From NCBI GenBank assembly GCA_965279305.1, contig OZ257143.1, positions 57,649 through 121,648 of the forward strand: 64,000 nucleotides of DNA, written 5' to 3'. This document shows, one piece after another, positions 42,001 through 54,000 of this stretch. Position 1 is the stretch's first letter. Each line of letters begins with the position of its first letter. The position numbers are program-made. Origin of the DNA: Gammaproteobacteria bacterium. Its GTDB lineage: Bacteria; Pseudomonadota; Gammaproteobacteria; JBIOEC01.

Positions 42001-45000
42001 TTTTTAAAGCATTCAAAAAATCGACTAACATTTTGTCGTCATAGGTTCCCTCCGGCAATAAGGGTTTGAAAAAACCGACCTGACCTCTACTAGATCCCAC
42101 ATGCGTGAGCATTTTGTCAATAATACTTTTCCAAAGATTAACGAACTCTAAAAAACTTAATGCATTTTCAGCCGGTTTATACCCTTCCGTTAGAAAAGGC
42201 TGCGCATCTGCTAAAAATATTCTCACAGGCACAGCAAAACCGTGCATATGTCCTATGTGTTTAAGAGTCGTTAGCTCACCACTCAACCGACTTTTTTGAG
42301 AAACCTCTTGTGCATCCGAACCTTTACGACTTGTAGGAATTTTGTATACTCCAATAGTCAGGTTTTCTAAATGATCGTCTGTAGCCAGTTTTACTAAACT
42401 ACTTAATTCTTTTATCAACACTTTTTCGTTTGGCATTATTCATTTGCTCCCATCGTTAAATAGTCTTCCATTAATATTAAGCATTAAAAGCCGGATAATA
42501 AGCCTGTTTTTGAGGCGGTGTTGCTTTTCTCACTTGTGCAGATAGCTCCATCATATCAACCAAAGGTACAGGAACCGCTGTTTTAGCGAGTTCCTCTTGC
42601 GCTTTAGTCGATGTCCAACGATCAGCTGCTGTCCTTTTGCAAGAATGCTCTATTAGCATTCGCATGATCAATGGCGTATCTAATGGAAGGTTACGCATTA
42701 ATTCAGCGGCTTCAGGTCTTTCCTGATCACGACGTTTATCTAGTATTTGAAAAAAGTTTACACTAGAAGGATAAACGGGTTTTTGGGTGGCTAACGCTAC
42801 GATGACTAATCCAAAACTATACATATCAGAACGCTTAGTCAAAGCCTCACCTCTACAAGCTTCAGGTGAAGCATAAGCAACAGTACCTCGGATCCAATCA
42901 CTTTGAGAACCAGCACCATTTTGTGAGGCAGCAGTAAAGATCGTATTTCCTATATCTTTTGTTAACGCTAACCCAAAATCGGCCACCTTCAAATGCAAAT
43001 CCTGTCCCAATAAGAAATTCTCGGGTTTCACATCGCAGTGAACCATACCCTGTGGAATCCCAGCAATAACCAAGGTGTGTAGAACAACTATGGCTCCCAC
43101 TATTTCCCTTGCAAATTGTAAACGCACAGACCAGGGAAGTGGCTGCGCTTGGTTATACAGAACATCTGCCAAAGAGCCCCATGCTAATTCAAACACCAAA
43201 GAAATAACAGCTTGCTCACGAACCTCATCAGAAAAATATCCATAAAATCCAATAACACTAGGTGATTTCACCATTCTCAGAGCTGCTATCTCTTGTAATG
43301 TCATGGCTTCACCCGCATCGTTCAACAACGGTATTTGTTTAAGCGCAACAGTTCCACCCGCTTTTCTTGAAACAGCATATACCTTACCAAAACCGCCTTT
43401 TCCTAGCATTCTGCCTTCCGTCAATGCTAACGTGTATTGGGCTTCCGCTTGTGTTTTTGTTAATTGGCGAGGTTCTTCTTCATTGCTGGCTCTTAACGCG
43501 TCTAATTTTACTTTTAACGCATCAGAACTACGTCTTTGTTCAGCCGACAATTTAGGAAATTGGGTTGGTAAACGCGTTTGATCTAACCAATAACGAGCCA
43601 TGATGTAATTGCCATCAGCAAAATTACTTTCAAGCAAAGCTACCTGGGCATTAATATCGCCCGCTTGCGCATCTATTACTTGGAAATAATTTCTCAAGAA
43701 TAAATCTGAACGGTTAACATACGCAAGATAGTCTTTCTCAAACCGAGTGGCTAGCTCAGTAAAAGTAGTTTCAAAGCGCACTAGTTTAATAATTCTTAGC
43801 ACTAAACTAGTTACGGCTTGCTTAGCAGCCAGCCACTCTTGCTCCGCTTTCACTTTTGCTTTCAAACCGATCACACCAGGTGTGGTGCCTACTGCAGGAG
43901 TGCCATTTATCGCAAGATGGTCCACACGAATGGTATACTCATTACTGGTTTTCTCTGTGTTCAATCTAGCGCGTAGAGTATTTCTGCGATCTTCCTCTAA
44001 TCCACCTTGATTATCAATTTCCCTATTTCTTTCGTTGATATCACTTACTAAAGCATCAATCTCTACCTGCTTTGCATCACGCCGTGTTATAAGAGCTGCT
44101 CTTCTGTCCACATAACCTTGTATAATTGCAAGACTCGCTGGCAGATGTCTTGTTTCAACCAAAATATCTACAGAAGCTTTCGTGGCATGATAAGGGTTAT
44201 ATTTTAAATTAACATTTAATGAGCCATTATTACCACCTGCATCAGTCCATGTACTTCCAGCACTGGTGATATCCGTAAACTCTCCATGCTCACCTTTTTT
44301 CTCGACTACCTGGCCATCAACCCGAAGACGATATTTATCTATTAGCCCTGAATAAGTGAAGGGTTGATTAAAGCTTATGCTCAAAGTCATCCACCACCAC
44401 CACCTTAATGTATATTCCCAATTCTTCGGCTCTGCTTTCGCATAAGGGGGTTGATCCGCAGCGGGAACAGAGTCATCTCCTTTTAATACTTGAATTTTCG
44501 CATCAAACTGGCTAAGCCCCCATTGTTCTTCCCCTATCTCAGTATACAAAGGAGTTCTATATACAATCGGATTAGCCTGTGCATCAACTGGGAACCGTCC
44601 CTCTAGCTTTACTTTTTCTATTTCCGCGGCCTTAAGTGCAGTTTTTTTACTCTCACGCTGTATCTTAAGCTCATCTGTTGGATCGGCCACCGTATCTACT
44701 CCATCTAACTCACGATCTATACGTTGATTATCCTTAACTAACCTATCTATTTCTCCGAGTAAACGAGTAATCGCTGGTGTGTGCGTAGCATGTGCTTGTG
44801 TATGACTTGAAACTTCGCTCATAGTCCCAGCAAGCGCTTGTTCAAGCCTTCTTCTTGCGGGATCATAGACATTAAAATTAAATTTTTCTTTAGCAACAAC
44901 AGTAGTATTCAATGCCAAGCGTTGTGTTACTTCTGTTCTTAATACAGTTTGATCCGCGTCTGTATTCATTAAAAAAATATTATCCATATTGGCGATCATC

Positions 45001-51000: not shown

Positions 51001-54000
51001 CTAATTTAATTATCCGGTCACGCTTTTCTTTAATCGTTTTTTCATTTTCCTCTATTGTTTTACTATTTTTACTTCTCTCCGATTCTCGGTATTTTTTAAG
51101 GTCGGATTTTTGTTTTTCATCATCAGTGTATTTTTTGATATTACCTTTAATAATTTGTATTGATTCGTTTACGTCTTTAATTTTATCCTTCAAAAATTCA
51201 CTTTTATCATTTAAAACAGTTAACTGCGCTTTATACCGCATAATATTGGTTTGATTGGCCGGTATGTTTTTTTTCTGTAATTGAATGGTAACACTTGCGT
51301 TACATTCTTTAGAAGGTTTATACTTATAAATTGCAGATAAATTTCCACGCTTTGTTTTTTTAGGATCATCTGAAATTTGACTCTTAATAACCTTAAACTT
51401 CATAAATGATCCATTTTCCTGATCAGCCTCGAAGATTGCCCCATCAATTAGTCCTGTATAACTCATTTCTTGACTAAACTCCCAGAAAAGCAAAAAAGAA
51501 TACCAAGATGGCTTAGATTCAAGCTTAGGTGTTGCGCTTGCATAGTAAATTAAGTCCTCTCTATCTATTTCATTAAGTGCATTTTGGTATTGTCTGATAC
51601 CCCATTTCTTCTCTTCATTGACGGTATCCGGTGGTTTAAGAGTCGTAAGTTTTATAGCATACATATCCTCATCTACTTCATCATCTTGATATGAGTCGGA
51701 ATTTATAGGAGGAATAATTTGTGCATCAATCATTCCTTCATCTATTTCACGTTTTATAGTTGTCCACCGCTCTAATTCTATTTCCTTTTTCCTCAATTCC
51801 TTATTAAATTCGACAATAGGCTCAGTTACTTTATTAGCGTCATCTATTTTCTGATCAAGGTCACTGTTTTCAGTTTTTAATCTGTCTTGTTCCTCGGATA
51901 AGCCAGGTAAATCTGATTTATCTCTTTGATGAGTGTCGATTGCAAGTGAGGTATCTCTTAGAATACGTATTAAAGTCTCTTCCAGATGTCTCATATCATT
52001 ATCTTGCGTATTAAAATTAAAAGCATTTGTGGGAATAATTGTTGATAAATCAACTAACCGCTTAATAATTCCTTCTTTTAATTCATCTTGTTCGGCTTTT
52101 GCTCGCATTAAAAAAACATTTTCAGTTCTAACAAGGATACTTTCTAAAATTTCTTCAACTGCTTTTAGCTCTGAAAATTCCTTAATTAATCTTTCTACTA
52201 TTGGATTATTATTGGGTTTTAAAATTCTTTTCGCTGTATCAAAACTAATTTTTATCCCTTGAAATCCCTTTAATTTATCTTCAATTTTACTAATTTTTTC
52301 TTTAACAAAGGATAAGTGGTCATTTATTCGCGCAAGCAGGTCATCATGAGTAATAAAAATATTATAAATCTTACTAAACACATATATGATGGGTGATTCT
52401 TTTGGGGCTTTCAATAGATCTGATAGTAATGTCACCAAATTCTGAAAGTCATCTCCTCTTGTTACACCAAGAGTATTGTAATCAATAACAACAATAATGG
52501 CTCTTATTGTTTTAGCACTATATATAGTGGCTTGTCTTAGAATAGATCCACACGAGCGTTCTTCATAATCTCGATTATCTCTAAAACCGTTAGTATCGCA
52601 ATACAAAATAGGAGAAGTTTCTAATCCAGTCCCTGAGGCGCCCTTGTAAACAGTCGCATATTCAGTGCAAGTCTCTTTTCCATGTCCAATTTTGGCCGTA
52701 TTTATACTTGTTGTATCAGCAACCTCTAAAAGAACCTCTCCAAATTTTTTTATCTCAACTAATTCTTTTCCTGTTAACACATTAACTAAAGTGCTTTTAC
52801 CAGCACCCATATCGCCTATGACTAAGACAACCTCTTTATCTTTAACCTCTTCAATTTTCACGATTTGAGTTTTTAATAATTCAGACATGCGATCTAAGCT
52901 AAAATCTAGGGAAGTATTGAATGTAAATTCACTGGGTTCAGGAGCAGGCAATGGTTTATATATATTTGGCTCTCCCCTCATCATAATAATCACTCCCTAA
53001 ATATCGGTTATAGATTAAAAATATTAGCACACCTCATGACAACATTGGGAATATTTCTTTTTGCTACCACAAGGGCAAGGTTGATTTGATTTAATAGAGA
53101 TCGGGCTATGGGGAATTAATGTTCCTGAGGTGTAAAACCATTGGCCATTTATTTTTTTAAATTGGCTGCGTTCGTGTAGCAAATGCAATTGATCGCCGAC
53201 AATATATCGGGCAGAAAATTCCACTTCATCTTTATCTGATCCATTTTTCTTACCCGCATCAATTACATTTAACCCACACCATTTTGTGTGATCAGCAGAT
53301 TGCTTAGCGCTTTCTGAATCAAATCCTTCTGCCCCTTTTTCTGCTTGAGTGCTAGCAATATAATCCATATTTCCTAAGGTGAAAGCGGTATAACGAGAAC
53401 GCATTAACTGCTCAGCGGTTTCAGTTTTTTTTTCAGTTTTTAGAAAAGGTTCGCAGCAAGATTTAAAAAGCTTTTTTGAACAGCAAGGGCATTCGTTTTT
53501 ATTAGCACCTTTCACAAACCAACCTCATTTATTAAAAAATGTATTTGAAAGTGAAGAGAACCAGCATACTAATACCCATGGTAATAAAGATAGCCGATAA
53601 TATCCAAGCACCATAATGGTTAGTTTTTTCAGATTTAATTTTAGACACAAATTTTTGCTCAAACCAATCCACTAAAAAAACCACACCTAAATTAACTACA
53701 ATTCCAGCCACAATGAAAATTAAACCTAATAAAAAAAACTGCGCACTCACGTTTTTATTCACATCCACAAAAGGAGGTAGAAAAGCAATAAAAAATAAAG
53801 CCACTTTAGGATTCAAAATATTCGTAATCACACCTTGAACAAACACATCTCTATTGGTATCTTTTTTAGAAATTTTAGTTTTTACTTCGCCTTCAATGTC
53901 ATTAGGTGAGGCATTACGAGAAGAAAAAAAGGCTCTAAGACCCAAATAAATTAAGTAAAATGCACCCACAGTTTCAATCACTCTAATGAGATGAGGATTA

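Follow-up and report, generated by a model that had tools for sequence, protein, structure and literature searches.

Three tandem paralogs of a small-genome gammaproteobacterium join a GIMAP-like G-domain and a stalk scaffold of protist endosymbionts to a eukaryote-type kinase and are candidate host-directed effectors

We analyzed a 64,000-nucleotide stretch of DNA (the window) from a gammaproteobacterium (GenBank assembly GCA_965279305.1, contig OZ257143.1, positions 57,649 to 121,648), which carries on its minus strand a tandem array of three large paralogous genes whose products we term p1, p2, and p3. Each protein runs in the same order through an N-terminal G-domain, a helical stalk, a beta-sandwich, a second helical hairpin, and a C-terminal kinase head. 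Because relatives in protist endosymbionts carry ubiquitin-system enzymes in the kinase's place, we lean toward reading p1-p3 as host-directed effectors of an intracellular, protist-associated bacterium. The three open reading frames (ORFs) lie exactly where an initial annotation, made from the DNA sequence alone, had put them, with the lengths it had given.

42477-46067, minus strand: p1, 1196 amino acids (the database copy, P0002, begins 10 codons later and has 1186)
46239-49697, minus strand: p2, 1152 amino acids (database protein P0001)
49847-52993, minus strand: p3, 1048 amino acids, GTG start (database copy P0050, 1045 amino acids)

The motifs which that annotation had quoted were recovered (the G1 strings, CDTPG(L/I)NDN, CDTNGFRDN, TRID/TKIE/SKIY, RWWWWMTLSISF, GKGGFGKVY, VALK, HCD(V/L)KPEN, and DFG), with one correction: the kinase motif APE is found in p3, and p1 and p2 read SPE. 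The G-domains were delimited as follows.

45198-45782, minus strand: p1 G-domain, amino acids ~96-290 (G1 GLIGSGKST, switch-I T178, G3 DTPGLNDNR, G4 TRID; Pfam MMR_HSR1 25.4 bits; family motif table)
48972-49556, minus strand: p2 G-domain, amino acids ~48-242 (GLIGVGKST, DTPGINDNR, G4 TKIE; Pfam MMR_HSR1 32.2 bits over amino acids 77-217)
52352-52897, minus strand: p3 G-domain, amino acids ~33-214 (GDMGAGKST, DTNGFRDNR, SKIY at the G4 position)

All three G-domains scored above the gathering score of Pfam MMR_HSR1 (21.9 bits; p3 reached 27.8). Pfam AIG1 (PF04548) stayed below its cut-off of 27 bits in p1 (23.6) and p2 (23.9) and gave no match in p3, Dynamin_N was below threshold in p1-p3, and 12 of the 66 relatives scanned matched AIG1 at E<=1e-3 (best, 1.2e-8). 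By fold, GIMAP structures came closest, with a modest margin over Era-like GTPases, which supports the earlier choice of a GIMAP/AIG1-like over a Roc-like domain. We conclude that GIMAPs are the closest structural relatives of the G-domain, although p1-p3 fall outside Pfam AIG1. The Pfam scan found no Roc, COR, or LRR in p1-p3, and the absence of the latter two had been predicted. Assignment of the P-loop to an ABC or AAA ATPase was rejected because fold, switch-I Thr, and DxxG motif all mark the domain as a TRAFAC GTPase; weak ABC_tran and AAA matches on p3 span the Walker A motif only. A profile of G-domain plus stalk compared with PDB sequences was uninformative and gave P-loop-level matches only (IRG proteins, septins, Toc33, Der, and ABC ATPases; E 1e-5 to 1e-3). 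Across 155 family G-domains, the G1 motif GxTG[AS]GKST, the switch-I Thr, and the extended G3 motif D[CT]PGFxD[NT]R are near-invariant. At G4, [TN]K is retained, and the guanine-specificity Asp occurs in only 21 of 108 members and, among the paralogs, only in p1. Because this Asp is so poorly conserved, the nucleotide could be other than GTP, and "GTPase" stands for p1-p3 as a fold assignment.

At the other end of each protein, the predicted complete Hanks-type kinase domain was borne out.

42597-43418, minus strand: p1 Hanks-type kinase, amino acids 884-1157, non-RD (HCD), Pfam Pkinase E 1.3e-34
46359-47168, minus strand: p2 kinase, amino acids 844-1113; the 3' end of the gene forms part of the p1/p2 gene-conversion tract described below
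49967-50749, minus strand: p3 kinase, amino acids 749-1009, Pfam Pkinase E 2.6e-38, with a residue-level alignment to LIMK1

Pfam PF00069 gave 120.2, 127.8, and 132.4 bits for the three paralogs against a cut-off of 31.7 (E 1e-34 to 3e-38). The Gly loop, beta3 Lys, alphaC Glu, HxD...N, DFG, [AS]PE, alphaF Asp, and alphaH-I Arg are invariant in p1-p3, and the catalytic residues align with those of LIMK1 residue for residue, so the concern that they might be missing on proper alignment proved unfounded. The catalytic loop HCD places the domains in the non-RD subclass. The top-scoring solved structures were all eukaryotic TKL kinases (SYMRK, BRI1, FERONIA, RIPK1/3/4, and IRAK4 for p2; LIMK1/2 for p3), and the head is predicted to be a eukaryote-type, non-RD, TKL-like Ser/Thr kinase.

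The region between the two domains had been described as ~500 amino acids of coiled coil interrupted by a Trp-rich, beta-like module. This description held in part: some of the presumed coiled coil extends the G-domain as helices, and what remains forms two long helical hairpins around a true beta-sandwich, for which no structural relative was detectable.

44133-44534, minus strand: p1 beta-sandwich module, amino acids 512-645 (envelope of the family beta-module hidden Markov model, HMM)
44370-44408, minus strand: p1 Trp-rich tip loop LRWWWWMTLSISF, amino acids 554-566 (Wimley-White sum -8.98 kcal/mol)
47892-48299, minus strand: p2 beta-sandwich module, amino acids 467-602, loop WQFQNAWWSFITM (family beta-module HMM)
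51254-51616, minus strand: p3 beta-sandwich module, amino acids 460-580, loop PSWYSFLLFWEFS

The helical stalk that follows the G-domain is homologous to the stalk of U-box-headed relatives. The variable loop of the beta-sandwich sits right after a conserved YW motif and holds the short Trp/Phe-rich stretches LRWWWWMTLSISF, WQFQNAWWSFITM, and PSWYSFLLFWEFS in p1, p2, and p3, each of which is the most interface-philic 13-mer of its protein (Wimley-White -9.0, -6.3, and -6.3 kcal/mol). In about a dozen relatives, the same loop carries a long Gly/Ala-rich insert of transmembrane-grade hydrophobicity. One of these is P0076 (679 amino acids), a fourth family member encoded on the same 1.87-Mb contig outside the window, which has the G-domain, stalk, and beta-module and lacks a kinase. 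The order of elements fits the G-domain, helical stalk, and membrane tip of the dynamin class, a geometry taken from sequence order only.

In a word-indexed search of 5.8 billion proteins, the full-length architecture was found in this genome only (on a contig of 1,869,759 bp). An exhaustive profile search with the ~770 non-kinase residues as query gave 1785 cluster representatives at E<=1e-3, of which 555 reached E<=1e-10 and 21 reached E<=1e-30. G-domain and scaffold together showed significant homology to proteins of Amoebophilaceae, Chlamydiae, Legionella, and Holosporales, and many of the best matches share the helical region up to a conserved FNFxxYD motif, the beta-module, and the second coiled coil. 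The family beta-module (YW...F.Y.G.PF...G.Y..Y.S...DG.A.V.I.V.K...P.N) was detected in 96 of 151 proteins. When the ~150 residues preceding the head were compared between the kinase-headed paralogs and nine U-box-headed relatives, profile-profile alignment gave 84% probability (E 7.6e-6). These alignments indicate that the whole scaffold of p1-p3 is homologous to that of U-box- and OTU-headed relatives.

Recognizable heads among the relatives were U-boxes (19 of 66 scanned), several RING families, and a few ankyrin repeats; at two loci in gammaproteobacterial metagenome-assembled genomes (MAGs), the head is an OTU deubiquitinase (L001) or a U-box (L004). A kinase head was seen neither in the 148 best representatives nor in the 34 members from named genomes. 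Scanning metagenomes with an alignment of the kinase clade returned 80 loci, at most 35% identical save for two short partial matches (39-41%), and none of the 80 encoded a G-domain or beta-module of the family. As far as these searches extend, the kinase-headed version appears to be unique to this genome.

The named-genome members came from a scan of one genome per species across 185,579 species, which gave 34 confirmed loci. They lie in a Legionella sp. MAG, several gammaproteobacterial MAGs, Candidatus (Ca.) Odyssella, Holosporaceae, Chlamydiales and Chlamydiae, Amoebophilaceae (up to six loci in one MAG), Cytophagales and Bacteroidota MAGs, a 1.4-Mb "Roseivirga" MAG, and single Marinamargulisbacteria and Acidimicrobiales MAGs; a scan of viral contigs found no family relatives. 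The bacteria that carry the family are mostly intracellular symbionts or pathogens of protists and belong to at least four phyla. Sec or lipoprotein-type signal peptides begin 19 of 141 relatives, which argues for export of at least some family members from the bacterial cytoplasm. Among these are P0056, P0096, P0103, and P0116, and several show a lipobox-like Cys (LLESC, LQGC, ILESC); the motif suggests surface lipoproteins in some lineages. Some members (P0051, P0105, and P0183) have two G-domains each. In Parachlamydia sp. AcF125 (GCA_018342475.1, locus L035, 6001-13735), the 726-amino acid member P0200 is followed on the same strand by genes for 856 and 905 amino acids, the latter with a faint MMR_HSR1 match, and an ankyrin protein is encoded nearby; this row may be another tandem array of the family.

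The history of the array in our window can be read from its pattern of identity. At the amino acid level, p1 is 70% identical to p2 and 32% to p3, and the DNA of p1 and p2 varies in identity along the gene, from 47% in the stalk up to 100% in parts of the kinase. Their final ~290 codons (42480-43350 and 46242-47110) are 90-100% identical, with exact runs of 203, 126, and 90 nucleotides, and identity stops ~20 nucleotides past the stop codon; parts of the stalk are just 47-66% identical, with synonymous sites saturated. Low identity in the stalk combined with near-identical 3' ends points to gene conversion of the kinase-encoding 3' end. We conclude that the array was born by duplication and that the p1 and p2 kinases were later homogenized by gene conversion while stalk and tip diverged. 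Three further features lie at the 5' ends of the genes.

45783-46067, minus strand: p1 N-terminal Ala/Gln/Pro low-complexity region, amino acids 1-95, encoded by 33-39-nucleotide tandem repeats
46068-46238, minus strand: intergenic region 5' of p1, with ~100 nucleotides shared with the region 5' of p2 (local alignment)
49698-49846, minus strand: intergenic region 5' of p2, with ~100 nucleotides shared with the region 5' of p1 (local alignment)

The Ala/Gln/Pro-rich N-termini that had been noticed in p1 and p2 are present, and that of p2 is encoded by 21-nucleotide tandem repeats. The shared stretch 5' of p1 and p2 is ~70% identical (TGGTyAATsGCT...AATCTCT...GCTATCTACTArTGA...), from which it follows that each copy was duplicated along with its 5' flank; the stretch may be a promoter or regulatory element. 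Promoter and terminator scans of the array gave results at chance level and did not distinguish one transcription unit from several. The GC content of p3 and its flank (49847-54000) is 0.33, as against 0.41-0.43 in p1, which fits a different age or origin of this paralog or differences in amelioration. Near-identical 3' segments with exact runs of this length could also be produced by mis-assembled repeats or belong to a decaying pseudogene array. We give this next to no credence: the three ORFs are unbroken and each exceeds 1000 codons, the identity of p1 and p2 is a mosaic and each has its own flanks, p3 is far more distant, functional motifs are kept in all three, and the same proteins are recorded from a 1.87-Mb contig.

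The genome around the array is that of a small-genome gammaproteobacterium, with a mean GC content of about 38% in the window. One metagenomic sequence matches its SucA at 95% identity and a few others at 67-71%, and named bacteria (Halopseudomonas, Thalassolituus, and Endozoicomonas) reach at most 59-60%. Housekeeping genes surround the array (the sdh/suc operon of the tricarboxylic acid cycle, map, ychJ, lysE, nhaA, and acrAB), and the window also holds genes of other kinds, with the ankyrin and orphan genes interspersed among those of core metabolism.

38990-42436, minus strand: 1148-amino acid ankyrin protein with an SMC-like coiled coil
24800-25774, minus strand: second ankyrin-repeat protein, 324 amino acids
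37094-38032, minus strand: orphan ORF, 312 amino acids, no Pfam family
35381-36223, minus strand: orphan ORF, 280 amino acids, no Pfam family
684-1307, minus strand: orphan ORF, 207 amino acids, no Pfam family
1323-2936, minus strand: 537-amino acid protein with weak TAL-effector-repeat and mTERF-like Pfam matches
15010-20717, plus strand: second tandem array, four stand-alone Hanks-type kinases of 547, 457, 502, and 425 amino acids
42477-42530 (p1), 46239-46290 (p2), and 49847-49900 (p3), minus strand: Pro-containing kinase tails, found also at the ends of the ORFs at 16653, 18038, 19428, and 20717

The 1148-amino acid ankyrin gene, previously described as upstream of the array, is in fact downstream in the direction of transcription; it starts 40 nucleotides past the end of p1 and may be cotranscribed with it. 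The 537-amino acid protein is a further gene of the eukaryote-interaction type amid housekeeping genes. The stand-alone kinases match Pfam Pkinase at E 1e-24 to 4e-41, are merely ~25% identical to one another, and occupy the part of the window with the lowest GC content (0.30-0.33). The second and third ORFs overlap by ~120 nucleotides, and the third therefore probably has a later true start. An origin of the fused kinases from these four was considered and rejected, the four being no closer to them than unrelated metagenomic kinases. All seven kinases in the window end alike, with A[PT]xP, 3-13 residues, P, and 0-4 residues to the end (for example, KATPPQKQAYYPAFNA, APIPKPLARTSQLGPI, and APPPQPLASAAPT), an ending found in none of the 29 other window ORFs of at least 120 amino acids. 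The enrichment in 13 effector-like relative to 23 housekeeping ORFs (Fisher p 2e-4) is for a pattern picked post hoc; the tail could serve all seven kinases as a signal for secretion or targeting, or it could be a docking motif that goes with the kinase. Taken together, the stand-alone kinases, ankyrin proteins, TAL-like repeats, and orphans make up the gene content of a host-associated bacterium.

If p1-p3 are effectors, we envisage the following mechanism. The G-domain, stalk, beta-sandwich with its hydrophobic tip loop, and second hairpin would form a horizontally shared chassis whose C-terminal enzymatic head is exchangeable and in p1-p3 is the kinase. GIMAP2/7, septins, and dynamin-class GTPases self-associate in a nucleotide-dependent manner. 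After export into the host cell, the Trp-rich loop would dock each molecule onto a membrane of the host or vacuole, the G-domains would dimerize or oligomerize depending on nucleotide and thereby concentrate or orient the molecules, and the kinase would then phosphorylate nearby host proteins. In this scheme, secretion, membrane binding, GTP specificity, and any link from G-domain to kinase are predictions, and each mechanistic step is considerably less likely than the effector reading as a whole; gating of the kinase by nucleotide state, the "ROCO-like logic" of the initial annotation, is pure hypothesis. We put forward only tentatively, and with more doubt than belief, the broader proposal that the ~700-residue scaffold is an undescribed, horizontally traded effector chassis of protist endosymbionts in at least four phyla, which would place U-box/RING, OTU, or kinase domains on host membranes, and that dimerization of the G-domain would switch the kinase on in trans, a convergent counterpart of LRRK2/ROCO built from unrelated parts.

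Several observations weigh against host-directed effectors. We found no signal peptide in p1-p3 and neither secretion-system genes nor a recognized secretion signal in the 64-kb window, and the array sits amid housekeeping genes with no obvious island. The beta-sandwich is placed at the tip of the stalk by sequence order, not measured geometry, and the G4 Asp is kept in p1 alone and in a minority of the family. The intracellular lifestyle is itself deduced from small genome size, GC content, and gene content, in an organism whose SucA is so distant from named bacteria. Finally, Hanks kinases are widespread in signaling inside bacteria. This last point, along with the missing signal peptides, the housekeeping neighbors, and the fact that the best word-indexed kinase matches are bacterial multidomain kinases, could instead reflect endogenous signaling, in which the kinase acts on bacterial targets under the control of the P-loop NTPase joined to it, with the hydrophobic loop possibly holding it at the inner membrane of the bacterium itself. 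We consider this unlikely, since the same scaffold elsewhere bears U-box/RING or OTU domains, which have no substrate system in these bacteria, since most of the family occurs in protist endosymbionts from unrelated phyla, as is typical of horizontally exchanged host-interaction genes, and since the kinase scores best against eukaryotic TKL kinases in a window unusually rich in eukaryote-like genes.

The proteins might also be structural scaffolds of the bacterial surface or a vacuole membrane, for example a symbiont or vacuole coat, with enzymatic domains that are secondary or inactive. This possibility, which overlaps with host-directed effectors rather than excluding them, would account for the long helical hairpins, the hydrophobic tip loop, and the lipoprotein signal peptides of some relatives, and a membrane-scaffolding role of GIMAP-like effectors was proposed by Aravind and colleagues (PMC3417536). 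However, the catalytic residues of both G-domain and kinase are all kept across paralogs merely 32% identical, which argues for selection on catalysis and makes a purely structural role, in our view, distinctly unlikely. We attach very little weight to anti-phage defense, in which a GIMAP/Eleos-like or dynamin-like GTPase sensor would be coupled to a kinase comparable to those of MADS, PD-T4-6, and Stk2. The PADLOC mad6 and PD-T4-6 models do match strongly (E down to 3e-54), a preprint connects GIMAPs with the antiphage Eleos system (bioRxiv 10.1101/2022.12.12.520048), and tandem paralog arrays and gene conversion occur in defense loci too. Nevertheless, the significant PADLOC and NCBIfam matches (mad6, PD-T4-6, PknB, and LegK1) are confined to the kinase domain and lie far under equivalog thresholds (NCBIfam MADS6, 68-76 bits against a cut-off of 460), and the non-kinase matches in PADLOC-DB 2.0 are just two and marginal (mad8, E 0.0047; LmuB, E 0.0064). 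The array is flanked by no defense genes, integrases, or marks of mobile elements, viral contigs hold no relatives, and the U-box and OTU heads point to eukaryotic targets.

Host-directed effectors with GIMAP-type GTPase domains have been noted by comparative genomics in Ca. Amoebophilus asiaticus and other endosymbionts (Zhang et al. 2012, PMC3482391; Aravind et al. 2012, PMC3417536), and by homology p1-p3 appear to belong to this family, previously noted only computationally. The accessible parts of these 2012 accounts treat the G-domain in passing and describe neither the ~500-residue scaffold of stalk, beta-sandwich, and coiled coil nor a kinase head, and we found no experimental characterization of any family member in the literature. 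The nearest parallel in architecture is in Ca. Centrionella anaeramoebae, a Legionellales symbiont with neighboring Rac1-like GTPase-ankyrin-kinase proteins (bioRxiv 10.64898/2026.04.11.717937). Both sets combine an N-terminal G-domain with a C-terminal eukaryote-type Ser/Thr kinase, occur as neighboring paralogs in a small-genome protist symbiont, and have no assigned function. The Centrionella proteins, however, have a host-derived Rho/Rac GTPase (PF00071), an ankyrin linker, and ~780 amino acids, whereas p1-p3 have the GIMAP-like G-domain, a linker of helical stalk and beta-sandwich, and 1050-1200 amino acids; the two fusions are independent and convergent.

Like p1-p3, ROCO proteins (LRRK1/2, the Dictyostelium Roco kinases, and bacterial Roco such as the Chlorobium protein) are large polypeptides that contain both a G-domain and a TKL-type kinase, and the idea of a dimerization-activated GTPase is common to the two groups. 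Unlike them, p1-p3 have no Ras-like Roc and no COR after the G-domain, and because both were tested and found absent, p1-p3 are not ROCO proteins. Modular Legionella effectors, which join Rab/Rho-like G-domains to U-box, F-box, or ankyrin domains and among which the Rab-motif proteins were shown to be translocated in a Dot/Icm-dependent manner (Gomez-Valero et al., bioRxiv 10.1101/350777), resemble the family in pairing a G-domain with a ubiquitin-ligase domain; they differ in their small Ras-superfamily, not GIMAP-like, G-domains and in their scaffold. LegK1-4, LegK7, and Coxiella CstK provide precedents for a eukaryote-like Ser/Thr kinase as a translocated effector but are without a G-domain or stalk, and the NCBIfam model T4SS_LegK1 gave only weak partial matches on p1-p3 (23-28 bits, far under the cut-off of 550). 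Relative to GIMAP2/GIMAP7 and the dynamin-like proteins BDLP, mitofusin, and SynDLP, p1-p3 are sub-threshold for both corresponding Pfam families; their beta-sandwich tip has no counterpart in these proteins, which also lack an enzymatic head, and the G4 Asp is not conserved in the p1-p3 family.

The GIMAP-type G-domain and its use by endosymbionts are already known. We found no published description of the full ~700-residue scaffold with its orphan beta-sandwich and hydrophobic tip loop, of this scaffold as a chassis with exchangeable heads, or of kinase-headed members in a tandem array with gene conversion. A common origin of endosymbiont effectors and the immunity GTPases of eukaryotes (GIMAP/AIG1) has been proposed (Aravind et al. 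2012, PMC3417536), and the family has a bearing on this proposal. Its kinase-headed members amount to a separate natural experiment in how a G-domain can be coupled to a TKL kinase, the same design principle as in LRRK2, whose regulation stays hard to dissect; p1-p3 are smaller and come as three diverged paralogs, and therefore might suit structural and biochemical work. If p1-p3 are indeed host-directed effectors, intracellular bacteria would be reusing one large GTPase-driven targeting scaffold and swapping only the enzyme at its end, which would provide a compact rule for predicting effectors in uncultured symbionts.

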